Source: Heptranchias perlo (taxonomy: Eukaryota). From it: DNA of 64,000 nt. The notes under the pieces were generated by a model. It was given only the letters and a program-made list of their open reading frames with translations. It did not search any database and was not told where the DNA came from. Both the position numbers and the translations under genes were made by a program. Numbering within the stretch: position 1 is the first letter of the stretch; the number at the start of each line of letters is the position of its first letter. Of this stretch, positions 4,649-57,261 are shown in pieces. The stretch spans positions 94,054,001 to 94,118,000 of the forward strand of contig NC_090327.1 in assembly GCF_035084215.1 (NCBI RefSeq), in the 5' to 3' direction.

Positions 4649-5767
4649 TTTAACACAAAGTACTGCATTACTCTTGAAAATATTCACAGCCTTTCAGGTC
4701 ATCTGGAAATCCTGTAGTTTTAACGTAATGAAAAATACACCGTGATCATTGTAGAAGTTCCCTTATTCTTTGCCACGGTCTAGGAACTGGAATGCAAGCA
4801 ATACTGCAGATTGCCAAAGCCATGTTCTGTTGCAATGAACGTTCACTGTGACTACCCTTACTGTAAATCATCCCTTATTGTGTGATTTTTTTTTTGAAAA
4901 CATTTGAACACACATGTGAAAAAAGTCTTGTTATGAAGTAATAGAGTATGAAGGACAAATTTTGGTATTTAAATGGAAACCATTTTCTGAAGTGGTCACG
5001 GGGAAAAGAAAGCAACAAAGACTGAATCTCAACTCCAAGACTCATTTTACATAGCAATGCCTAGAACGAAACAGATCACAATGGGAAACATCTCAGCTAT
5101 GCAAAAGGTCATGGTCAGTCCATTGGTAACTAAGCAACATTTTCAGAAATGGTAGTGTAGGTATGCAGTAATCCTGGCAAAGGCATACAGAGGAACGGGC
5201 AATACCTATGGCTTGGTTCACAATATCACAACAATTTTAAAAGGATATCAAAACTGAACTGTTATGTTAAGGTACTTTTCCACAAGTGCAAGGGGTGTGC
5301 CTGCATTACAAAAAGGAGTATAAAAGCAATAGACCATGATTTGAAATGGGGGAAATAAAATGCCATTAACATAGCTTGCAAACTATACATTAGAAAGTGA
5401 AAATATCTGCCTAGTCAGTAAGTCATCAACAGAATTGAACGGATCCTCAGGCTGTGCAAAGCAGATGATAAAGCAATTGTGGTCCCAGTTATTGGCATGG
5501 TGTTACAGAAAATGCACTCCAGTGTGCGACTTGGTGGAATTAGCTTTACCAGTCTCGAAACCTACTCAGACAGTTAACAACCTTAAAATACTAATTGTCT
5601 GCAGAAAACACTAAAGTCACATTTGCTATCAACCAAATGAACCTTTAAACAGGAATAAGTATATACTATAAGATCAATGATGATGTGGAGATGCCGGTGA
5701 TGGACTGGGGTTGACAATTGTAAACAATTTTACAACACCAAGTTATAGTCCAACGATTTTATTTGAA

Positions 5768-5808
5768 ATTTACAAGCTTTCGGAGGCTTCCTCCTTCCTC
5801 AGGTAAAT
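5768..5808 (-). ncRNA. Minimal type I hammerhead ribozyme (PLE family A)
   Basis: Minus strand: auuuac CUGAGGA a GGAGG aag CCUCC GAAAGCU U guaaau. 6-bp stem I, 5-bp stem II, palindromic AGCU stem III. Confidence 0.85.
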
Positions 5809-6077
5809 GTCAGGAACTCCTCGAAGCCTACGCATTTATAAATCACAGAACAATACATGGTGATTACAGATAGTCTTTGCAACTGCCCGTTGCCAAGGCA
5901 ATCACAGTGTTCAGACAGAGAGGTGTTACCTACAGAGCCCCGGAATATACAGTCAAAAAAACCCCAAACAAACAGAAAAAAAAACAGAGAGAGAGAGGCA
6001 GAAACATCCGGAAGGCAGAGAAAGCCAGCAAATGACCCGTTATATTAAAAACAGATAGCTTTTGTTCGCTGGTGGGG

Positions 6078-6272
6078 TTACGTGTAGCGTGACATGAACC
6101 CAAGATTCTGGTTGAGGCCGTCCTCATGGGTGCGGAACTTGGCTATCAATTTCTGCTCGACGATTTTGCGTTGTCGTGTGTCTCGAAGGCCGCCTTGGAG
6201 TACGCTTACCCGAAGGTCGGTGGCTGAATGTCCCTGACTGCTGAAGTGTTCCCCGACTGGGAGGGAACCCTC
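6078..6272 (-). pseudogene. C-terminal fragment of PLE GIY-YIG endonuclease
   Basis: SLPVGEHFSSQGHSATDLRVSVLQGG...EQKLIAKFRTHEDGLNQNLG*; the HF..H..D...E...I...T...GLN pattern of PLE GIY-YIG domains. Confidence 0.85.
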
Positions 6273-6461
6273 CTGCCTCTCTCTCTCTCTTTTTTTTTCT
6301 GTTTGTTTTTTTTTTGACTGTATATTCGGGGGCTCTGTAGGTAACACCTCTCTGTCTGAACACTGTGATTGCCTTGGCAACGGGCAGTTGCAAAGACTAT
6401 CTGTAATCACCATGTATTGTTCTGTGATTTATAAATACGTAGGCTTCAAGGAGTTCCTGAC

Positions 6462-6502
6462 ATTTACCTGAGGAAGGAGGAAGCCTCCGAAAGCTTGTAA
6501 AT
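6462..6502 (+). ncRNA. Minimal type I hammerhead ribozyme (inverted copy, family A)
   Basis: atttac CTGAGGA a GGAGG aag CCTCC GAAAGCT T gtaaat. Confidence 0.85.
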
Positions 6503-8257
6503 TTCAAATAAAATCGTTGGACTATAACTTGGTGTTGTAAAATTGTTTACAATTATAAGATCAATGAATTTAGAGTATGTTACTGGGAGGATCAGTTTGG
6601 GTACAAAAGTGACTTTCATTAGCAAAACAGCCATTCATCATAGTTGATTACAGTACAATAAAACAACACACCCTTTTCTAATCCACAAAAGCTAACACAC
6701 CACCAATAAAAGCATAGTTAAACTACATTTGCCATACGTTTTCCCTGCATCAGGATATGACACTCAGACATAAACTGGAATGGTGTATTCAAATTCTGCA
6801 GCATGATCTAAATTAGAATTGCGGTCAGAGTGGATACTGTATGCTTTTATCTGTTCTTGAATTATCTATTATATTTGTTGGAAGACTTTTAATTTCAATT
6901 AAACTGCAATCAGCAAATGTTCTGAATAAAGGCTGATTTCTGCAGAGCAAAAGCTTAAATCCAGAGTATGACAGCTTAAACGGATAACAAAAAAGATTGG
7001 TGTTGCTGAATCCCTAGTTGTGAAAAAAATATACTGGCAGATCATTAATCCCTTCCTTCAAACTGCAACTAATATGATTTAGCCATCGAGATACTGTATG
7101 TGCTGACGTCAATACAAACATGTACCAGTGGCTCTACCGACATTTGTGTTTTCACCTTTCGCTGACTGATGATCATAGACAGTATATTAACCTGTTGTTG
7201 ACTGATGATCACTAGTTAACAGCAATAGAAATAAATAGCATGTGTATTGAAATTGCTTTAACAAAGACAGTTGAGTGAATTTAAAATTGCTCCAGTGTTA
7301 AAACTGATTGATGGAAGCTCTAAATCTATGCTTCCTACATAAATACTTAGACTGGAGGGATCTGCAGTTCATAAGAGTAAAAATGCTGCAGCCTCTGGAC
7401 GGTTATCCTGACTGCTTGCACCAGAATTCTTGGTGGAGAAACATGCACAAGAATTTAAAGCTTTTGACTGATATTTTAATGGGAGTTGGAACATCCACAG
7501 GAATTAATTCTTTCAGAGGTCACTCCAATTCCCAGCCCACTGTAAACCCACCTGATGCTAGAAAGGATGCTCTGAATGATATACTGTACAGATAAATCTG
7601 GCTGTAGATATTTTACATCTAGCTTATCACAGATTTCTAAATAGGATATTATTTATTCATGCACTTGTCTCTGAACATTGAGATCAGCTTGACAACATAA
7701 ACCAATGACAAAGTAAACAGTAGCTATTGGGCTGCCACTTCACACAGAGAAGCCATCAGTTACTTGTCAAGATTTAAATGAAAAGGCTATAAAGGATTCT
7801 GTAAAACTGTACTGAATGATGAGCAGATAATCAATCAGGGTTAACTTCAGTATAAAGCAACAAGTTTATTTAACAAATGATTGCAGCAGGATTGATATCA
7901 ATTTAAGAATTATATTTATTTTAAAGAAATGATTCCCATACAGCAGGCATGTTAAAAAAAAATCTGCCTGATGATCTAGTTATTTTTTTAGGATTCTTCT
8001 AAAAGGTTAGATTTCAATAAAAGCACCACAGACTATATTCCTTTTTTCCAGTTTTCTTGAGTTCTGGAACCATACATGTGGATTCTGAACTGTGTGTTAC
8101 TTCCCTGGTGTCAGGATAAGGGGCAACAGTGCAGGTACGTAGCTCTTGTGGGGGGGGGGGGGGCGGGGAAAGAGGGAGAAAGAGACAAAATCAGCTGGAA
8201 GCCATTGTTCATTGCAAAGAGAAACAGGATTCAGGTTCCAAAATAGTTCCAGGATTT

Positions 8258-8464
8258 TGTTCCTCCCCTCCCTCCCCCCCTTGTACTTGCTCTGTACTTG
8301 CTTAAAAACTTTAACTCTAACATCTTCCAGTTCTGACGAAAGGTCTTCGACCTGAAACGTTAACTCTGTGTCTTTCTCCACAGATGCTGCCTCACTTGCT
8401 GAGCTTTTCCAGCATTTTCTGCTTTTATTTCAGATTTCCAGCATCCGCAGTATTTTGCTTTTGA
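8258..8464 (+). mobile_element. PLE 3'-end / pLTR fragment (family B)
   Basis: 10-bp TSD tccaggattt (8248-8257 / 8465-8474); contains an HHR and the tail ttcagatttccagcatccgcagtattttgctttt. Confidence 0.85.
8329..8365 (+). ncRNA. Minimal type I hammerhead ribozyme (PLE family B)
   Basis: agtt CTGACGA a AGGTC ttc GACCT GAAACGT T aact. 4-bp stem I, 5-bp stem II, palindromic ACGU stem III. Confidence 0.8.
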
Positions 8465-10331
8465 TCCAGGATTTAGAAGGTAAATTAAGTAGCAGGACCT
8501 CAAAAGGTGATAATCTCAGGATTACTACCATTGCCACGTGCTGTTGGTCCAGGATCGGCCTGACCAGTTCTGGGGCAGGAGTAAGCTCTATCGAAAGGAC
8601 AGGCTATAACTAAACCTAACTGGAACCAATATCCCTGCAAGGAGGTTGATTAGAGCCATATAGGATGGTTTAAACTAACATGGGGAGGGGGTGGGGGGGA
8701 AAAAGAAGAAAACTTGAAAATAGAGTGGGCAGCTCAGAAGGGAAAGTAAATTTTAGGTGTCTAGGTAGAAAGGTTGAAAGATATTAAGTAGGGAAAGATA
8801 GTAAAAAGGGAAGATTAGAAAGGGAGTGTGAGGAAAATTGAGCAAACAAAACATATGGGGCAATAAAAAGGCACATTAGTAAAAGAATAACCAAGGAAGG
8901 GCCACCAAGAGATGAAAGAGACAAGCTTGAGCTGGAGACTAGTAGAATGCTGGAGATACTAAATAAATACTGTGTCTCATTTTTCACAGAGGAAGTGGAT
9001 ATTGGGATTGTAGAATCACCAGCAACAAGCGTAAAACAATTAGTGGAAATTATTATTCAAAGGGAAATAGGACTAAAGATCATCAAATCAGTGGTTTCCG
9101 ATGATTTACATCCGAGGATCTCGAGGGAAGCTCGGGAAGAAATAGCAGAGACTGACAATAATTTAACAAAATTCAGTGAAAAAGAAAATTGTGTCAGAGG
9201 GTGGCAAATGTGACCCCCACCCCTCTTCAAAAAAGGTCAGGGGTAAGACAGAAAATTATGGGCCAGCTAGTTTTAATTGAGTTGTTGGTAAACTGCTGAA
9301 ATCTATAGCATGAGATGAAATTGTAAAGCACTTGGAGAAATATGAACAAATCAGGGTCAGTCAGCAAGCATTTAAAAAAAGGTAGTGCTTGACCAACTTT
9401 ATAGAATTCTTTAAAGAGAGGATAAAGGCAGCACATAATTAGATATGGTTTACATGGACTTTCAATAAGGTACCACATAAGAGACTTATGGCAAAGATAA
9501 TAGCACATGAGATTAAGGGAAATGTGGTCACATTGATAGAGAGATGGTTGCAAGGGATAAAGCAAAGGGTAGAGATAAAAGGAAATTTCTTGGACAAAGA
9601 AAATTTGGTAAGTGGTCAGTGTTAGGGCTGCTCTTATCTACTATATGCAAAATGTTCCGCACTTAGAAATTGGGGGAAGTTATATTGTAATTTTCTGATG
9701 ACACCAAATTGAATCTCTCTCTCTGCACCTTACATTTTTTGCTATTGAACATTCATCGGAACATACTTGTTATAACACTTAAGATGCATGGATTTTAAAT
9801 AGTCAAGTATATTTGTAAATTTTACGTATCACCTTTACTGTGCATTTTATAGTTGAGTGGCTCTGTTTTTTTTTTTAAGTACAACATGTCTAGATGCTCG
9901 ATCTCAAAAACTGCTCATCTTGTCAAAACCTGCTCCTTGCCTTCTGGGCAAGATTAATTACTGTATTTATGCATATTAATTACATTCTACATTCAGACAC
10001 TGACTTAAAAAGTACTGGCTTTACATAAGAGTTCAAAAAATCAGAATCAAAAAGAGCCAATTTTTCCCCCCATGGTCCCATAAATAACAATACAGTGAAG
10101 CACATGCAGCTGGATAACACTGTCCAAGTGTGGGGTTGGAGGTACACTGGAGGGGGATGTTCAAGGACATCAGAAATACTATTAATTGAAACAAGATATT
10201 TCAAAGTAATGCAGAACAACAAGCACAGACCAATTAAAAACATTTGGCAAGTACAACCGTGAAGCAAACTGGGTTTTGTATTTCCTCAGTTATATTTATC
10301 GTTGAAGACCCATGTTCTGGAGTGTTAGAAA

Positions 10332-11044
10332 TCCTGCCTTTTGACTAGGCGCATTTTTGAATTTGCCTTTATTTTCATTTGAATGTTGATCCTGAAAAAT
10401 TCAATTGTTATCAACTGGGAGATGGTCAGTGGGGTAATGAAGAACTGCTTCAAGAAAATGGATAAAGGGTGGAGGGATATGCAAAATGATGCTTTTGCAT
10501 GCTGGGAAGTGATCAGCCCCTGGGTGATTGGAGGTTGGTATTTCAGCCCTTATGTTTGCTTAGTTTCTTTTTGTAAACATTTCAGTTCACACATCAAGTT
10601 ATCCAGTCCATTGTGCTTTATTCTAGCAACATGGTACAGCACGGCTTGTGCCCATCATCCACGAGGTCCTGATCTTTGCTGTGCTGTTAAGAGGGAGACA
10701 CTGCATAAGAACTTTGCTCTTTCATATCATCGCCTCTCTATTCTCAGTTTATGACTGGGATGTGTCTCACCCAATCTCTGCCACGTCTATGTAACCTGAA
10801 TTCTCAGTCTGTCCGTGTGCACATTTTTGTTGCTGCTCTGGACTCAAGCCCATTGCCTCCATCTCCTTCTTTTCCCTCTCGGCCCGAGTCCTTCTCTCCT
10901 ACTCTCCGTTACTTGGACATGCAATCTTTCATTTCTCCCCTCTTGGGTACTTTGCCCCCTCCTCATCCCTACCCCAACGCATCACTAGTCCTCTGCCTTA
11001 CTGCTCTTCTGCCGCTATCCCAGGCTTCAACCTTGATGGTTAAA
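10332..11044 (-). repeat. ~720-bp unclassified repeat attached to a SINE 3' tail (copy 1)
   Basis: Colinear with the reverse complement of 49236-50373 once the CR1 insert is removed; translations VRVHIFVAALDSSP / VRVHIFAAALDSSP and SQASTL.V.ERKNLH are shared. Confidence 0.9.
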
Positions 11045-11495
11045 GAAAGAAAGAACTTGCATTAATATAGTGGCTTTTATGACCTCAGGATATCCCAAAG
11101 TGCTTTACAGCCAATGAAGTACTTTTGAAGTGTAGTCACTGTTGTAATGTAGGAAACGCGACAGCCAATTTGTGCACAGCAAGGTCCCACAAACTGCAAT
11201 GTGACAATCACTGGATAATCTGTTTGTGATGTTGGTTGAGGGATAAATGATGGCCAGGACACCGGGGAGAACTCCCCTGATCTTCCACGAATAGTGCCAT
11301 GGGATCTTTTACATCCACCTGAGGGGGCAGACAGAGCCTCGGTTGAATGTGTCATCCGAAAGACAGTGCAGCACTCCCTCAGTACTGCATTGAAGTGTCA
11401 GCCTGGATTATGTGCTCAAGTCTCTGGAGTGGGACTCGAACCCACAGCCTTCTGACTCAGAGGCGGGAGTTCCATCACTGAGCACGGCTGACACT
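11045..11495 (-). mobile_element. tRNA-head SINE with L2-type tail (DeuSINE/SacSINE1-like)
   Basis: Minus strand: A-box-like gtgctcagtgatgg, B box ggttcgagtccc, conserved body, (ttct)n tail; multiple copies in the window. Confidence 0.88.
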
Positions 11496-22913: not shown

Positions 22914-23376
22914 AAAAGCAAAATACTGCGGATGCTGGAAATCTGAAATAATGCAATTTACAACCTTTTGGACTCAACACTGATTTCAATAACTTCAGAT
23001 CATAACCACTGCTCCCATTTTTTTGGACAGTAAGTGCTGGTAATGGTTCTGCTGTTGCCATTTACAGCTCCTCTAGACCCATCTTTCATTTCTTTACTTG
23101 TCCCATTACCACCCTCCTTGCCGTACACCATCATCCCTTTTGTCATTTAAGCACTCCTGCCCTCCACCCTATCAGAGACTTTCCCTTTTGTTCTTTCCTC
23201 CCCTCCACTCCACCCTCCTTTTCCAGGCTCTGTACTTGCTTAAAAACTATTTAATCTTCAACTTCTTCCAGTTCTGACGAAAGGTCATCGACCTGAAACG
23301 TTAACTCTGTTTCTTTCTCCACAGATGCTGCCTAACTTGCTGAGTATTTCCAGCATTTTCTGTTTTTATTTCAGAT
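22914..23376 (+). mobile_element. 5'-truncated PLE (family B) with inverted tail
   Basis: TSD ggcagYagatc (22903-22913 / 23377-23387); 22914-22951 is the reverse complement of the family B tail; 22958-23005 encodes LQPFGLNTDFNNFRS* (GIY-YIG end); then pyrimidine-rich 3' UTR and HHR. Confidence 0.88.
23270..23306 (+). ncRNA. Minimal type I hammerhead ribozyme (family B)
   Basis: agtt CTGACGA a AGGTC atc GACCT GAAACGT T aact; differs from 8329 only in loop II. Confidence 0.8.
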
Positions 23377-27229: not shown

Positions 27230-28673
27230 CCAAATGTTACCCCGCTATTCAAGAAGGGAGAGAGAGAAAAATGGAACTACAGGCCAGTTAGCCTGACATC
27301 AGTAGTCGGGAAAATGCTGGAATCCATTATTAAAGAAGCGTTAACAAGGCGCTCAGAAAATCATAATACGATTTGGCAGTCAACATGGTTTTATGAAAGG
27401 GAAATCATGTTTGACAAATTTATTAGAGTTTTTTGAGGCTGTAACTAGCAGAGTAGATGAAGGAGAACCAGTGGATGTAGTATATTTGGATTTTCAAAAG
27501 GCATTCGATAAGGTGTCACATAAAAGGTTGTTACGCAAGGTAAGGGCTCATGGGATTGGGCTAATATATTAGCATGGATAGTGGATTGGTTAAAGGACAG
27601 AAAACAGAGAGTAGGGATAAACGGGTCATTCTCAGAATGGCAGGCTGTAACCGGTGGGGTGCCGCAAGGATCGGTGCTTGGGCCTCAGCTATTTACAATC
27701 TATATTAATGACTTAGATGAAGGGACCGAGTGCAATGTATCCAAGTTTGCTGATGATACAAAGCTAGGTGGGAAAGTAAGCTGTGAGGAGGACACAGAGT
27801 CTGCAAAGGGACAGAGACAGATTAGGTGAGTGGGCAAGAAGGTGGCAGATGGAGTATAATGTGGGGAAATGTGAGGTTATTCACTTTGGTAGGAAGAATA
27901 GAAAAACAGAATATTTTTTTAAATGGTGAGAAACTATTAAATGTTAGTGTTGAGAGAGACTTGGGTGTCCTTGTACAAGAAACACAAAAAATTAGTACGC
28001 AGGTACAGCAAACAATTAGGAAAGCAAATGGCATGTTGGCCTTTAATGCAAGAAGGTTGGAGTACAAGAGTAAAGAAGTCTTACTGCAGTTGTACAGGGC
28101 TTTAGTGAGACCTCACCTGGAGTACTGTGTACAGTTTTGGTCTCCTTATCTAAGGAAGGATATACTTGCCTTGGAGGCAGTACAATGAAGGTTCACGAGG
28201 TTAGTTCTTGGGATGAGAGGGTTATTCTATGAAGAGAGGTTGAGTAGAATGGGCTTATTGTCTCTGGAGTTTAGAAGAATGAGAGGTGATCTCATTGAAA
28301 CATGTAACATTATTAGGGGGCTTGACAGGGTAGATGCTGAGAGATCGTTTCTCCTGGCGAGAGAGTCTAGAACTAGGGGCATAGTCGCAGGATAAGGGGT
28401 CGGCCATTCAAAACTGAGATGAGGAGGAATTTCTTCACGCAGAGGGTTGTGAATCTTTGAAATTCTCTACCCCAGAGGGCTGTGGCTGCTGAGACACTGA
28501 ATATATTCAAGACTGAGATGGGTAGACTTTTGGACTCTAGGGAAATTAAGGGATATGGGGATCGGGCAGGAAAGTGGAGTTGAGCTCGAAGATCAGCCAT
28601 GATCCGATTGAATGGCGGAGCAGGCTCGAGGGACCGAATGGCCTACTCCTGCTCCTTTTTCTTATGTTCTTAT
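27230..28673 (+). mobile_element. CR1 LINE, 5'-truncated, frameshifted RT
   Basis: [23 protein letters not shown]...[25 protein letters not shown]; ends cttatgttcttat. Confidence 0.95.
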
Positions 28674-31058
28674 CTGCTGCAGTGTAAACTTTTTCAATCC
28701 TGTTCTTAAATATCTTCGAGTTAAATGAGTTTATGGTGCCAGATGAGGTTGCATCACCAATTACAGCACTATATCCTCTCTTTTGTGCAGAACTATGGTT
28801 GAAGTGTTTGTACTGTGCCCTTTTAAGTTAATTACTGCAGATATTCAGATCAATGATTAAATAAATACAATAAAAAAATGAAATGGCTGCCTCCTTGGCA
28901 CAATAATGTAGAAATATTGGAATTGCTAGACTAAAAAAGACCAAAGTCCATTTAGTTTGCCTTCTATCATCCCTGTAGTCGCATGATACAATGATAATGG
29001 AGTTGTTGACTAATCATAGCAATCAATCTCTATCAATTAGTTTATAACAGACTCAGACATGACGTGAGGAAAACCCCAGTGGAGGAGTTTTGGGAACCAT
29101 AGGTTACATTATCAATTACTGTACAATTGCCAGCATACGCAACATATGAAGTAATAATACTTGGGAAAACAAATTTTTTTTTGGTGAACATACCTCACAG
29201 GAACTATCAAAATAATTCAATGACAAGCAGTGCTCTTTTCTGTATCTCATTTGTACCAGTTCAAAAGGAACTCAAAATATTTAGCTCACATCAGAAGAAT
29301 GACTAGCTGTGAGTAAGAGAAACCTGCATGACCTGAGGTTAATTTATTTAATTACTGCACAAAGAATTCAGACCTTCTGGTTTCAAAGAGGTTCTAGCCA
29401 TCTCATTTTTTCTGACAGATTTTCAACTTGAGAATCCATCTTAAGACGGTGAAAGAGATTATCTCATTTAAATCCAAAAATTTTTGTGAAAGCTTTTGCT
29501 GATGTAGAGCTGCTTGGGGTGAAATAGTTCAAACAGAAAGAAAACCCCAGTCAATCAACATGATTACCATTAATAAAATTAAATTAACAAACATTAGCCC
29601 TACAAAGGAGTTGAAAAATCCAGATTTTAAGGGAGGATAACAAACAAGACACTTTTTAAAATATCTGTAATTTTTCCCTTTCTATGGACATTGTCAGTAT
29701 GATTGATATTAGTAGTTTGAAATTTTAATTAAGAACAGCACATTAAAAAGACAAACTTTATACAGCATAAAATAAGATTGCATTAAACTGTAAAGCAATC
29801 AACATAACAGACAGGGAAGAAAAGATAGAAATGTTATGATTGTAGTGCTATGAGCTGTAACACCCCCACTTCAATATACACTGTTTTCAAATTCCGATTG
29901 ATCCTTTGTCTCTCAATGTTTTTCAAATGCAGTATGACATTTCAATGTACAGTACAATAAACTCAATCCAATGAGAATAATGAACCCTAAGCTCTGTATA
30001 TTTTTTTAAACCACAGCTACAACCTGTTACATTGTTGGCTTCACCTTATGCTAAAAACACCCCTAATGTGGTTAAAGACCCCCCCCCCCCCGCCACGTGC
30101 CAATCCCACCCTGAAACATTTGCCTTGTCTTTCATCATTACCTCAATTTACCAATTTAAACATGGAAGCACTTATATTTGTGGTGAATCAATATTAACTG
30201 ACACATTAAAATTAAATTCTGCACAATCACACATACGATAAAGTGGTGCATGCACTTTGAATCTTCAAATTGTGTTGGCTCCCAGGTACCGTTTCACCTT
30301 GAGAATCCAGGGTAAGGGGTAGAAACATGCCCTTTTTTATATATGAGTAGCACATAAGCAATGCCACAAAAACTGTCTCAAAACACAATGGATCTTAACA
30401 TTCATCCTTGTAAGAAAAAAAGATATTCCTCCTGGAGGCAGATAATCCAAAAATCTATTTGAAAGGCATGAGATGCAAAACATTTTGCAGAGTAAGATTA
30501 TCTCACATCACAGCATTGTTCACTTATTACACCTGCATTTTTTTGGATAATGCATTTTTGCAGCTCAATAAGCCGCCCCAAGGTTCATGAAAAGCTGCCC
30601 AGTATCCCTCTGAGGCATCATTAAAGAGCCTGTGATACAACAACATGCAGTCACTTTGACCTACAGAATATTAATAGTCAGGTTTGGGTTGTGGGTCAAT
30701 GAGCTCACAGAAACTTGGGTAGGAAAAGGTCACACAGAGTCCTCGTACATCACCGAGAACTAGAAGATGATGCGTGGAAAAGTAGAAAACTCAATCTGTG
30801 CTACTTGTAGATCTGGGTGCACATGTAGCTGTGGCAGCTCCTGCTCATTACTGGCAGCCTCAGTCGTATATAGGAAAAAAAAGATACACACTTGGGTATC
30901 CTCAAACCAAAGGGAAACAGCTGCTGCTTAACCCCTTTGGAGCATTTTACAGTTTGAGAAAAAGCACATAAAGCTCCACATAATCAATCGGGATAGCTGT
31001 GAAAGTGTTATCTGTACATACGAGTTGTAAATTAAGCAGGACTTACATGAATTATTCT

Positions 31059-31290
31059 TTTTTTAAAAGAAGAAAAATTGCAAATGCTGCAACTCAAATA
31101 AAAATTGAAAATGCTGGAAATACACAACAGACCAGTCAGCATTTGTAAAGAGAAAGAGCAGGTTATGACTTTTCACGCGTGTACCCTTCAGAACTAATGA
31201 AGGATATACACCTGAAATGTCATAAGCTGCCTTTTCTCTTTACAGATGCTGACTGACGTGCTGCGAATATCCAGCATTTTCTGTTTTTAC
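31059..31290. mobile_element. Old palindromic PLE-derived mini-element with decayed back-to-back hammerheads
   Basis: 11-bp TSD tgaattattct (31048-31058 / 31291-31301); arms gaaaatgctgga...gtcagcatttgtaaagagaaaag versus cttttctctttacagatgctgac...tccagcattttc; centre ctaatgaaggatatacacctgaaatgtc. Confidence 0.78.
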
Positions 31291-42546: not shown

Positions 42547-42650
42547 CTTCCAGTTCTGATGGAAGGTCATCGACCTGAAACGTTAACCCTCTTTCTCGCT
42601 CCACAGGTGCTGCTTGAACTGCTGAGTGTTTCCAGCATTTTCTGTTTTTG
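42547..42650 (+). mobile_element. PLE pLTR fragment (family B) with mutated hammerhead
   Basis: agtt CTGATGG a AGGTC atc GACCT GAAACGT T aac (A9 to G) plus family B tail; possible TSD atgatttt (42539-42546 / 42657-42664). Confidence 0.8.
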
Positions 42651-48810: not shown

Positions 48811-49235
48811 TAGCTGTGGCTCAGTTGGTAGCTTACTCACCTCTGAGTCAGAAGGTTGTGGGTTCAAATCCCACTCCCAGGGGCTTAAGCAAAAAAATCT
48901 AGGCTTACACTCCAGTGCAGTACTGAGGGAGTACTGCACTGCTGGAGGTGCCATCTTTCGGATGAGGCATTAAACTCAGGTATATGTAAAAGATCCCACA
49001 GCACTACTTCGAAGAGCAGGGGAGTCCTCCCCGGTGTCCTGGCCAACATTTATCCCTCAACCAACACATAAAAACAAATTATCTTGTCATTATCGCATTG
49101 CATGGGACCTTGGCAGCTGCATTTCCTACATTACAACAATGACTACACTTCAAAAGTACTTCATTGGCTGTAAAGCGCTTTCGGACGTCATGAGATTGTA
49201 AAAGCCAATAGATTAATGCAAGTTCTTTCTTTCTT
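48811..49235 (+). mobile_element. tRNA-head SINE, full length
   Basis: A box tggctcagttgg, B box ggttcaaatcc, tail aatgcaagttctttctttctt. Confidence 0.9.
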
Positions 49236-50373
49236 GAACAGTCAAGGTGGAAGCCTGGGATAGCAGCAGAAGAGTAGTAAGGCAGAGGACTAGTGATGGG
49301 TTGGGGAAGGGAGAAATGAAAGATTGCGTGTCCGAGTGACAGGGAGGGTAGGAGAGAAGGACCGAGAGGGGAAAAAGAGCAGATGGAAGGAATGGGCTTG
49401 AATCCAGAGCAGCAGCAAAAATGTGCACACGGACAGACTCAATGGGAATTCGGGTCACATGGGCATGGCAGAGATTGGGTGAGACACGTTCCAGTCATAA
49501 ACTGAGAACAGAGAGGAGATAATATCCTGGGGTGAGAGGCTTGTTCTATGAGGAGAGATTGAGTAGAATGGGCCTATACTCTCTGGAGTTTGGAAGAATG
49601 AGAGGTGATCTCATTGAAACATATAAAATTCTGAGAGGGCTTGACAGGGTAGACGCTGAGAGGTTGTTTCCCCTGGCAGGAGAGTCGAGAACTAGGGGTC
49701 GTAGTCTGAGGATAAGGGGTCGGCCATTTAGGACGGAGATGAGGAGGAATATCTTCACTCAGAGGGTTGTGAATCTTTGGAATTCTCTACCCCAGAGGGC
49801 GCTGGATGCTGAGTCATTAAGTATACTCAAGACTGAGATCGATAGATTTTTAGACTCTCGAGGAATTAAGTGATGTGAGAATCGGGCGGGAAAGTGGAGT
49901 TGAGGTCGAAGATCAGCCATGATCTTATTGAATGGCGGAGCAGGCTCGAGGGACCGTATAACCTAGTCCTGCTCCTATTTCTTATATTCTTATAGTACGA
50001 AAGAGCAAAGTTCTTGTGTAGGGTCTCCCTCTTCAAAGCACAGCAAAGATCAGGACCTCATGGATGATGGGCACAAACCAGTTTACCATGTTGCTGGAAG
50101 CAAAATGGACTGGATTACTTAATGAAATGTTTACAAAAAGAAACTAAGCCATCATAAGGACAGAAATACCAATTTCCAATCACACAGGGGCTGGTCACTT
50201 CCCAGCTTGCAAAAGCATCATTGTACATATCCCTCCACCCTTTATCCATTTTCTTGATGCAGTTCTTCATCATCCCACTGACCATCCCCCAGTTGATAAC
50301 AGTTTTTTTTTAGGATTAAAGTTCAAGTGAAAATAAAGGCAAATTCAAAAATGCGCCTAGTCAAAAGGCAGGA
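49236..50373 (+). repeat. ~720-bp SINE 3' extension (copy 2), interrupted by CR1
   Basis: Inverted homolog of 10332-11044. Confidence 0.9.
49525..49993 (+). mobile_element. CR1 3' fragment nested in the extension
   Basis: RGLFYEERLSRMGLYSLEF...WNSLPQR; same subfamily as 28210-28673. Confidence 0.93.
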
Positions 50374-50404
50374 AGGCAGGCCTTCAGCAATAAAGGACCC
50401 ATTG

Positions 50405-50628
50405 CACTTCTTCGAAGAAGAGCAGGGGAGTTCTCCCCGGTGTCCTGGCCAACACATAAAAACAGATTATCTGGTCATTATCACATTGCCGTTTGTGGGA
50501 CCTTGGCTGCTGCGTTTCCCACATTACAACAGCGACTACACTTCAAAAGTACTTCACTAGCTGTAAAGCGCTTTGGGATATCCTGAGGTCATGAAAGGCG
50601 CTATATAAATTCAAGTCTTTCTTTTTTC
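50405..50628 (+). mobile_element. SINE 3' half
   Basis: cgaagaagagcaggggagttctccccggtgtcctggcc...aaaggcgctatataaattcaagtctttc. Confidence 0.85.
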
Positions 50629-50949
50629 TTATAAAATGATTGAGAAAAAAAAGGAGTACACTGATGAGTGTGTCTATAAAATGGGTGTGAACTTTAACAC
50701 AGAGTGTGTTTGAATGTGCAGCATGTGGATTGCTGCCAATTAGACTAAAAACAGGAATATAGTGTTCTGCATATACGCTTGTAGAGTACTATCACAGCGC
50801 TGCCCTATTATACATGCCATTGTGTATAGCATGCAAATCGCGTTTGCATGAACATGCCCACGATAAAACAGTGGGTACTGTATCTGGGCTCACACATGAA
50901 GAATGGCCACTTGGGCACACTCCAGTTTTACTGGAAAACATAGATCGAT

Positions 50950-54390: not shown

Positions 54391-55824
54391 AGAGGCTTTC
54401 AAGCCAATTTCTAAAATATATACATCAGTTATTTAAAATGACTGTTGCAGTGACATCGGGAAAGGGCAGCCTAGCAGTGAGTCCTTTCAGGCTTCACTAA
54501 AATGGTCATCTTAAATCTTCAATGAGATGTCTGCAGGAGCTGCTGCTTAAACCCTGAAGACAACCACAGGGTAGTCCACATGCACGGACCATTTTGCTCT
54601 CTTAGCTGAAACTGGAACCGTAAGCTCTCAGGAAAAGCAGCTCAAAGGAAGTTTAATGTACATCAGAACTAAAAAGGAAAAAAATGTTTTGTGGAGTTCA
54701 TTGAAAGATTTGTATCTACACAGTGTAGTATTTTGACCAGACAATGCAAACTGAAGTATTGTGCTATTTTATGCTTAACCATTGAGGAATTCAGTGGAAT
54801 CAGTGGAAAAACAAAGGCAATTAATAAATTAAATCATATATCCCTACATCTTCCCCGTGCCACCGAAAAACCGTCCTTGATGATCAGGAAAGGATTAATA
54901 ATCCAATACATGGATAACCAGTTCAGTACCCAGATTCCCTTCATTCCCTTCGTAGACAACACAGGACAGACCAGGGAGTGATGTGGTGCATCCGATGGGT
55001 TTGTGCAACACAGACACTGAGCTTCCAAAGCTACATGTACAATAAAGACTAAGTCATACTAAGTAACCACTTAAACCGTTCATATCATTTTGGTGATAAT
55101 TCACATTGAGAGTTATAACATCCTTGTGTCCTCCACAACAACAGCAACTTGTATTTATGTAGCACCTTTAACATACTAAAATATCACGAAGCATTTCAGA
55201 GATGTGAAGGGAACTGGCTGATAACTGCTAACTATTCAAATGACTGCCTGTCAGCCAACAAAAGAGTGATTTCAAACAACTGGTGAGCTTTACGAACATA
55301 ACTAACTAATGAAACACTTGGTTTCATTCTCGGATCCTAAGGCAAGGCAATACAATAAAAATGTCATGGTGTGTTATTTGACAATGCAGGACATACAAAT
55401 CTTAGCTCCAATAATGAAGTTTTTTTTTTCAAAAGGAACCTTCAAACAAACTAATGTGACATAGTCAGTGGTGAGCATTGGTGAAATCGTGACTTTTTGG
55501 GCACTTGTTAACAAGCAGAGCTTCAAAGAGGTGAGCTTGTTAAACAAAATACTGTTACAAAAGACAGGCCATAATGGGTGCAGCCCAATGCAGACGTAGA
55601 CGACAATACTTGGGTTTTAAAGATCCACATATCTGTCTAGTGTTCCAAAAAGTGGGCAGAATTTTGGCAGTATATGGAAATTGTAATTATGAGGCAACTC
55701 TATGTTCCCATAATTGCTCTACCCTATTTCATGTTATGATGTGGAGATGCCGGTGATGGACTGGGGTTGACAATTGTAAACAATTTTACAACACCAAGTT
55801 ATAGTCCAGCAATTTTATTTTAAA

Positions 55825-55863
55825 TTCACAAGCTTTCGGAGGCTTCCTCCTTCATCAGGTGAA
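55825..55863 (-). ncRNA. Minimal type I hammerhead ribozyme (family A variant)
   Basis: Minus strand: uucac CUGAUGA a GGAGG aag CCUCC GAAAGCU U gugaa; 5-bp stem I with a compensatory change relative to 5768-5808. Confidence 0.85.
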
Positions 55864-55872
55864 CGATGTGAA

Positions 55873-55905
55873 ACCTGACGAAGGAGGAAGCCTCCGAAAG
55901 CTTGT
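55873..55905 (+). ncRNA. Hammerhead core with truncated stem I
   Basis: ac CTGACGA a GGAGG aag CCTCC GAAAGCT T gt; only 2 bp of stem I remain because the inversion breakpoint lies inside it. Confidence 0.6.
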
Positions 55906-57261
55906 GAATTTAAAATAAAATTGCTGGACTATAACTTGGTGTTGTAAAATTGTTTACTATTTCATGTTGGATAGTTTAAAGGATTTCTCTCCCCTTAATC
56001 CCACCCATTTACATCCTCATCCTGTAACTATTATCAGAACAACTCAGAAAGCAAGTGAACAATCATTTCAGAAACCAGTTAAGTGGAATTGCAAGTTGCT
56101 ATTCTGGTTTATGGACCATTAGTCAGAAATTAACTGGTCAATAGTTGCTGACAACACTCTTGCTTGTTGGTAAATTAACTATCCCTCTGAAGGGTCCATA
56201 TTTCATAATTTTCAAACCCAACCCCATCCCTCATGCTTATCAACTTCAATCACCTTTGCATTGCAAGAAACCCACTCCCCGTTTTTAAGTGGTGCGCCTG
56301 GATCTTGTACTCTTCAAGTAAATTTCTGTTGATTCACAAATGCCACAGGATAATTTCCTGAAAAGTTGCATATGACAGTTTCACAGGAATTAAGAGGAAA
56401 AAAAATCCTTTGATGGCAGTTAGCGTAAATGTAAACAAACAATCTCCAGGGTGGTATTAACTTGTATACTAGAATTCTATGCTGTGCAATAGTTCAGGTC
56501 AGACCAAAAAAAATCCTTGCAGAATAACTGGTCTTTTGATTAATAGCAATGACAATACTGGGACTGGGCAAACAGTTGCATTGCTACTTTTTAAAAAAAG
56601 TCAATAAAATGTCTTTTACTTTTGGTATTCCAAAAAGTATACATTTATGAGCTAACAATGCTGGACACAATGTCCTTTTAGGACATTCAATCAACCCCAA
56701 CTTGGTCTGTGATGTAAATTTGAAAGTTCAGGTGTTCATTGGCTGCTAAATGACACAAAGGATTTACTCTTAAAATACACAACCAAATCCTCTATAGGAA
56801 AATCTGTGTGTGGAGATTAGATTAGGATGAAGAGGGCTTCATGCAACTTCTTCACATAAAAGGAGTGATCAATACCAAGAGTGGACTTCAGGTACAATGG
56901 TGGAGGTGAAAATAATTTACAAAGCCATTCATTGCTGCGATGGAGGGGGGAGAACAACTATTGGGTCCTTCTGGATGAATGACTATGATGAGATGATTGG
57001 CCTTCATCATTTGTGTCTATTTTGTGATTTTATGAACTCTTGTAGAAAAAGAAAGTGCTATATGTTATTAAGCACCTTCCTTAATACCCATGAAATACAA
57101 TTCCAAAATCTGTATTTCACATAAGAAAACAACTCTCCAAGAACCTATACATAAACCCAATCACATTCTGCAGACAGTAATACCAGACACAATGGATAAT
57201 ATGGTATGGTCCAATTACAACACAGAGTGAAATGTGAAAGAATACTACATTGTGTAGTGAT

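Follow-up and report, generated by a model that had tools for sequence, protein, structure and literature searches.

Pairing of a minimal type I hammerhead is kept across lineages of a Neptune-like Penelope retroelement in Heptranchias perlo, while the copy at 55825-55863 is a decayed fold-back

Minimal hammerheads (min-HHRs) in the pseudo-LTRs (pLTRs) of metazoan Penelope elements (PLEs) have been published, covariations included, by Cervera and de la Pena (2014, PMC4209133). That paper describes them as inactive alone and as weak cutters that work only as dimers or multimers, and proposes the formation of circles from PLE RNA. Hammerheads in Penelope repeats and their covariation have been known since 2014, and as a ribozyme find the motif described here is ordinary. 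In the anole element PAc (Poseidon, Anolis carolinensis; Frangieh 2024, PMC11167929), the motif needs the element's protein and is dispensable for insertion in vitro. Craig (2021, PMC8557442) assigns linkers of the C-x4-C-x2-C type to Neptune/Nematis and considers that PLE hammerheads may be mere parasites of their elements. Promoters have been described differently among Penelope elements: Arkhipova (2013, PMC3846280) proposes one for Adineta vaga pLTRs from motifs alone, with a putative initiator besides TATA, while Drosophila Penelope has a TATA-less internal promoter. PLE-derived retrozymes have been reported in one chondrichthyan (bioRxiv 10.64898/2026.07.22.740005).

The window analyzed here is a 64,000-nucleotide stretch of Heptranchias perlo DNA. 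At 55825-55863 lies a minimal hammerhead of type I, here called family A, read on the minus strand from 55863 to 55825 as uucac CUGAUGA A GGAGG aag CCUCC GAAA GCUU gugaa. The core elements CUGANGA, GAAA and UH are present in type I order, stem II has 5 bp with an extra A on its 5' side, and the palindrome AGCU is all of stem III. All parts lie on the minus strand:

55825..55863, minus: hammerhead motif of family A (sequence and predicted fold, in agreement with the published consensus)
55864-55859, minus: stem I, 5' strand
55858-55852, minus: C3 to A9, with N7 = U at 55854
55851, minus: extra A
55850-55838, minus: stem II
55837-55835, minus: G12 to A14
55834-55831, minus: palindrome AGCU
55830, minus: U17
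55829-55824, minus: stem I, 3' strand
Between 55830 and 55829, minus: predicted cut

Family A fits the min-HHR consensus CUGANGAH G...C GAAA N-palindrome-NU H and shares with the motifs published in PMC4209133 the extra base between positions 9 and 10.1, G10.1-C11.1, a short stem I, the lack of a loop III, pairs on opposite strands, and covariation-rich families. A turtle min-HHR in the same source has an identical AGCUU junction, and the 56 motifs of its Fig. S3 include no cartilaginous fish. An Rfam search of the window gave 0 matches at the gathering threshold, and at E up to 10 the region 55700-56000 gave 11 weak matches, none to a hammerhead model. Failure of the hammerhead models is expected of a motif that has no stem III. 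The look-alikes at 55700-56000, such as MIR7807, were rejected as hairpins below threshold that the inverted repeat accounts for.

The family A core has 29,600 exact matches in the 3.25-Gb genome versus 0 for its reversed control, so chance origin is excluded. Other stem II variants of this core add 31,101 matches, and the downstream tail motif has 105,204 exact matches. Intact family A cores thus number at least 60,000 in the genome, alongside 7,413 matches to cores of a second type, family B (5 for its control). Together these exceed the vertebrate maxima of about 4,000 and 9,000 in PMC4209133, which used another counting method. The repeats resemble those of a cartilaginous fish.

The motif sits in the pLTR of a Neptune-like Penelope retroelement. 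At locus L121, two motifs 3,066 nt apart enclose an open frame of 918 codons (902 from the ATG), whose translation (P0001) has a reverse transcriptase (RT) domain (PF00078, E 3e-10) as well as a C-x4-C-x2-C linker and GIY-YIG-type motifs. The linker and GIY-YIG motifs were read directly from the translation, and a Pfam search of P0001 returned no GIY-YIG match. RT, a CX2-5CxxC linker and GIY-YIG at the C terminus, all in one frame, are also the features of the Neptune clade of EN+ PLEs in PMC8557442, the linker motif being the sole basis on which P0001 was placed in that clade. By the same source, the clade further has in common with family A partial tandems, inverted 5'-truncated copies and a 30-40 bp tail. 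About 95 nt separate the hammerhead from the start codon of the 902-codon RT-GIY-YIG frame below it; the motif recurs after the stop of this frame, and it occurs in both pLTRs flanking the RT-EN frame at L121, L221 and L223. Tandem arrays with several intact 918-codon frames were seen at L121, L221, L222 and L223. The further intact frames in L221-L223 suggest recent activity, and the family A element is young and probably still active. Two other repeat-rich features were noted: at L123 1-3500 each of the six frames stays open over very long stretches, and this is probably a low-complexity tandem repeat, and the window contains many dispersed repeats of other families (10300-11400, 28200-28700, 49000-50700 and others), probably LINE/SINE fragments.

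The closest comparison for this arrangement is PAc, which also has, by PMC11167929, its hammerhead at the pLTR-ORF junction and two RT start sites or 3' ends that define an optional tail. The same text finds no evidence that RNA ends at the cut; this holds for family A too, judged there from the ends of genomic copies. Unlike PAc, whose ORF starts in stem II, family A carries its motif entirely within the 5' UTR; its tail stops at the start codon, and a Neptune-type Cys linker is present in its protein.

The copy at 55825-55863 belongs to a fold-back insertion (55736-55957), of which the motifs at 55858 and 55875 are the two arms:

55724..55735, plus: target-site duplication, left copy, 12 bp
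55736..55873, minus: long arm of the fold-back Penelope insertion, 5' end 15 nt above C3
55873..55957, plus: short inverted arm of the same insertion, with a hammerhead core (N7 = C, C3 at 55875) and the short 3' end
55957..55968, plus: target-site duplication, right copy, 12 bp

The long arm has no TATA: it begins about 31 nt behind the TATA position of full copies of the same lineage, then runs through the hammerhead, AATAAA (55819-55814) and the tail, which ends at the element's start codon. In the 55875 (+) arm stem I is broken (gaaac vs gugaa), its 5' strand having been lost at the junction. Folded alone, the 55825-55863 motif has predicted stem probabilities of 0.97-1.0, and except for a tolerated change at N7 nothing in its stems or core is damaged, as would be expected if this copy were itself a functional, host-selected ribozyme or hairpin RNA. 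We find that explanation hardly credible: the TATA region is absent, the copy carries a post-insertion CpG change and is one among more than 60,000 intact cores, and in context the 89-bp inverted repeat takes all ribozyme pairs, for a predicted stem probability of 0.0. It is one decayed copy within a promoterless fold-back insertion, predicted to be unable to fold.

The fold-back at 55772-55961 forms an 89-bp near-perfect hairpin (-152 kcal/mol for 250 nt) with a weak microRNA-precursor score, and thousands of such loci could give double-stranded RNA if read through. Identity with the non-LTR retrozymes of bioRxiv 10.64898/2026.07.22.740005 was rejected. In that preprint they too have type I hammerheads from PLE repeats, but they are head-to-tail arrays of short non-coding units; the window contains no such array, and 55736-55957 consists of one head-to-head fold-back flanked by a target duplication. 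Palindromic inverted junctions and a putative TATA are also common to Adineta vaga Penelope pLTRs and family A, although PMC3846280 ascribes the palindromes to self-priming on antisense RNA, whereas the 5' ends of family A copies follow TATA spacing.

A sequence-only reading of this DNA had taken a U-A to C-G double change in stem I, between two other copies in the window and the one at 55825-55863, as covariation supporting a selected fold. The letters are as it gave them: stem I is uuuac/guaaa in the copies at 5768-5807 (minus) and 6462-6502 (plus), both with N7 = G, and uucac/gugaa at 55825-55863. The two comparison copies belong to a single insertion, together with a remnant of the coding region:

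5667-5679 and 6554-6566: 13-bp target duplication of the insertion
5680..6553, no strand assigned: inverted 5'-truncated insertion of the U-A lineage, with C3 at 5802 (minus) and 6468 (plus)
6048..6278, minus: C-terminal GIY-YIG endonuclease fragment, 90% identical to P0001 residues 842-918; the end of this frame lies upstream of the 5802 copy

Since 5768 and 6462 are arms of one insertion, and 55858 and 55875 arms of another, the comparison is of one event with one. All U-A copies share one clade on trees built from flanks only (support 100/99 with 64 rows and 99/97 with 108 rows, the bootstrap being unsettled), so the double change exists but occupies a single branch. Both trees contain duplicate arms, chimeric rows and rows deliberately enriched for C.A and II.4 breaks, and were used only to place this clade. 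U.G copies are derived inside it.

Genome-wide counts provide the stronger evidence. Pair I.3 is C-G in 20,976 copies, U-A in 2,550 and C.A in 95, with 4,144 copies in a U.G state that bridges U-A and C-G. C.A thus stands at 0.45% of C-G, a decay level, while U-A reaches 61% of U.G, and among C.A copies with a partner arm the partner is C-G in 5 of 7. A similar picture emerges from a sample anchored on the tail rather than the ribozyme (100 tail matches, the first ones on C1, giving 84 scorable cores in 56 insertion clusters). Counted by cluster, the states were C-G 54 and U.G 3 at I.1; A-U 48, G.U 11 and A.C 0 at I.2; C-G 41, U.G 18, U-A 1 and C.A 0 at I.3; U-A 45, U.G 8, C-G 3 and C.A 0 at I.4; and A-U 49, G.U 5, G-C 2 and A.C 0 at II.3, the few remaining pair states being truncation junctions or singletons. 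The extra A between A9 and stem II and G10.1 were each found in 56/56 clusters, no variation was seen at G5, A6, A13, A14, the palindrome center, U16.1 or U17, and the remaining variation in the core consisted of scattered singletons or CpG decay.

Lineage-level changes in stem I (4 bp) and stem II (4 bp) pass via G.U while the catalytic core stays fixed. Across the eight core pairs, pairing was kept in 11/11 lineage-level changes versus 7/14 singletons (Fisher p 0.008), a comparison of about 11 events counted by hand on trees with chimeric rows. In a 24-row alignment of analyst-chosen rows (22 family A haplotypes and 2 family B), 98.1% of cells were paired, compared with 27-46% in slid controls, and 0/500 shuffles were as high; the shuffle test takes no account of relatedness, and the two family B rows supply most of the both-side changes. 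Compensatory or wobble upkeep of stems I and II is therefore seen, with only 4 + 4 pairs constrained: pair II.5 is A.C in 10/56 clusters (one large lineage) and I.5-I.6 are often unpaired, which sets the limits of the constrained fold.

These patterns could in principle have arisen by chance and common descent from a few master copies, without any selection for pairing. The stem I pair first cited is indeed one branch, three haplotypes without the fourth are the outcome of any clonal tree, and G.U states arise via common transitions. However, reciprocal C.A and A.C states are absent or at decay level while G.U founds lineages, at no fewer than five pairs, and changes occur in the loop and flanks but leave the core fixed, which makes ancestry and chance a very unlikely explanation. 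Our data support a fold that is under selection, with structure rather than sequence kept across lineages. The sequence-only reading had drawn the same conclusion, which the genome-wide counts bear out, though the evidence it cited was weak and non-independent. Selection acts on the source elements, across lineages, and is no property of the 55825-55863 copy, since inserted copies decay in a pair-breaking manner and the ribozyme stems are lost in the fold-back.

Pairing is not an absolute requirement in a template, because pair-breaking states occur in both arms of single insertions. C.A at I.3 was found in both arms of one insertion in 4 pairs among the matches listed, and a II.2 break is common to both arms of the insertion at C1:1455921/1459435. 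A recurring II.4 C.C type was also present among the matches listed. II.4 is non-G in 506 copies, and covariation at this pair was rejected in favor of decay, since the partner C is unchanged among the 100 matches listed. A small recurring stem II type broken at II.4, in rows from C2-C3, could, by bulging out a C, close a GAAA tetraloop.

Variation at N7 (G, U and C) had also been offered as a sign of a selected fold. All three letters can be read, the C in the 55875 arm whose broken stem I went unmentioned in the sequence-only reading, and changes between C and G do occur at lineage level, but U7 is CpG decay after insertion: N7 is U or A in only 444/29,600 family A cores (U in 85 among the 100 matches listed), and where a U7 copy has an inverted arm as its partner, that arm carries C7 in 10/12 cases. 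The same is true at 55825-55863.

Family B was represented in the window by three copies (8333, 23274 and the decayed 42556), with the form aguu CUGACGA A AGGUC uuc GACCU GAAA CGUU aacu:

8327..8367, plus: family B minimal hammerhead, A-U at the base of stem II
23268..23308, plus: family B minimal hammerhead
42550..42590, plus: family B hammerhead, decayed, A9 changed

The stems of family B had been called entirely different yet still pairing, and the family a subfamily of the same element. They do still pair. Stem III, however, is the same but for the inner two letters of its palindrome (AGCU vs ACGU); a palindromic minimal stem III of the dimer design is present in both families, and stem II is not entirely different either, its pair 2 being G-C in both. 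The base of stem II is A-U in family B only, unlike the G10.1-C11.1 of the PLE minimal class and of the published consensus in PMC4209133. Nor is family B a subfamily: its copies lie downstream of RT-EN remnants that are only about 29% identical to P0001, and it is another, older Penelope family. Directly below the hammerhead at 8362-8384 (plus), and in other family B copies, a branch-point-like UUAAC, a pyrimidine tract and CAG resemble a 3' splice site overlapping the cleavage region. A decayed inverted repeat at 31099-31289, whose tail is like that of family B and whose two damaged hammerhead-like cores have GUC at the end, is likely a third, older Penelope family.

The less expected part of our data is the pile-up of copy 5' ends behind a TATA box and not at the predicted cut. 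In family A the TATA box lies 39-46 nt above C3 (e.g., L121 6513-6552, minus), and copy 5' ends peak 29-31 nt behind it in both spacing classes: the median end is 10 nt above C3 where TATA is at most 41 nt above C3 (78 copies) and 16 nt above C3 where TATA is at least 44 nt above (49 copies; p 7e-6, arms of one insertion not being independent). Among 100 sampled copies, of which 9 rows were reassigned by visual inspection, 44 start between TATA and C3, the upstream region is retained in 41, and 15 start within the core or below it. We infer a transcription start about 30 nt behind TATA and 4-11 nt above stem I, which would place the ribozyme right behind the cap. In the window, TATA or 5'-end positions can be seen at 55873 and at 5802-5841 (minus). 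A literature search that lacked most subscription papers found no report of Penelope copies whose 5' ends follow a TATA box.

Ends at the predicted cut were sought separately, and no excess was found. For the tail type that makes up 47/100 sampled copies, 462 copies genome-wide have 5' ends near the cut; in a hand count of the 100 matches listed, 18 were at the exact site, 16 at +3, 26 at +2, 7 at -1 and 23 at -2, and 10 belonged to a shifted lineage. Copies that continue into the ORF started at the predicted cut in 0/12 cases. Since copy 5' ends follow TATA and are rare at the cut, the RNAs that were copied appear to have been uncut or rejoined. This agrees with a slow cutter that depends on dimers, in view of the weak activity of the published min-HHRs and the need of the PAc motif for its element's protein. 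At the other end, 100 copies fall into two 3' end classes some 40 nt from each other, 51 of them with the long end, which is at the start codon, and 49 with the short one. AATAAA occurs about 10 nt below the predicted cut in 97/100 sampled copies and is a possible polyadenylation signal inside the terminal repeat.

Family A is a minimal type I hammerhead whose stems are kept across lineages, probably because source elements need it as a slow cutter, predicted to act only as a dimer. The cleavage triplet is CUU, a poor one for hammerheads, and counts against this reading. Two motifs, from the 5' and 3' repeats or from tandem units, would pair through the AGCU palindrome to build stem III, and the dimeric motif would cleave behind CUU, so that tandem or read-through RNA would be shortened to unit length, possibly as a step to circularization. 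Such trimming, perhaps into circles as Cervera and de la Pena proposed, is the likely selected role. The transcript would begin about 30 nt behind TATA; a lone motif would cut poorly, and reverse transcriptase, with two priming sites in the tail, would then mostly copy uncut RNA. The 55736-55957 locus likely arose when a short cDNA of this kind folded back. A simple energy model did not favor the active dimer: it was placed at -23.5 kcal/mol versus -24.4 for two monomers, with -26.1 for a 6-bp palindrome form and -32.3 kcal/mol for a loop II swapped form.

Alternatively, the fold may be selected mainly as an uncut 5'-UTR structure behind the cap, acting in protein binding, translation or the RT jump between the two terminal repeats, with self-cleavage rare or only a brake. 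This is in line with the 44 of 100 unbiased copies that begin between TATA and C3, the few that stop at the predicted cut, and the fixation of U17. It also agrees with the anole element, whose catalytic mutants transpose normally in vitro and for which no reads end at the cut in PMC11167929. We nevertheless regard it as unlikely, since catalytic letters are fixed across lineages and in both families A and B, none of which a purely structural role needs, and the stem III palindrome stays self-complementary (AGCU, ACGU).

A retrovirus-like first step is another, doubtful, possibility: TATA-started RNA would be reverse transcribed to the cap through the uncut ribozyme, and the product would jump to the 3' repeat, with the hammerhead as a gate. 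The first ~110-150 nt (hammerhead, AATAAA and tail) would be repeated at the RNA 3' end, RT would prime in the 5' tail, and recovery of the promoter would take two jumps. The tiny and fold-back insertions, in their tens of thousands, would then be failed strong-stop products, and the selected hammerhead would decide which RNAs stay usable templates.

The value of this family lies in its use as a test bed: it is young and very large, with intact frames and many lineages, which makes counts of lineage change versus decay possible. Those counts indicate that source elements are selected to keep both the fold and the core, and 5' ends that follow TATA and not the cut narrow the role to tandem-RNA processing, circularization or regulation. 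The family A element is a clean candidate for an assay of cleavage and transposition.
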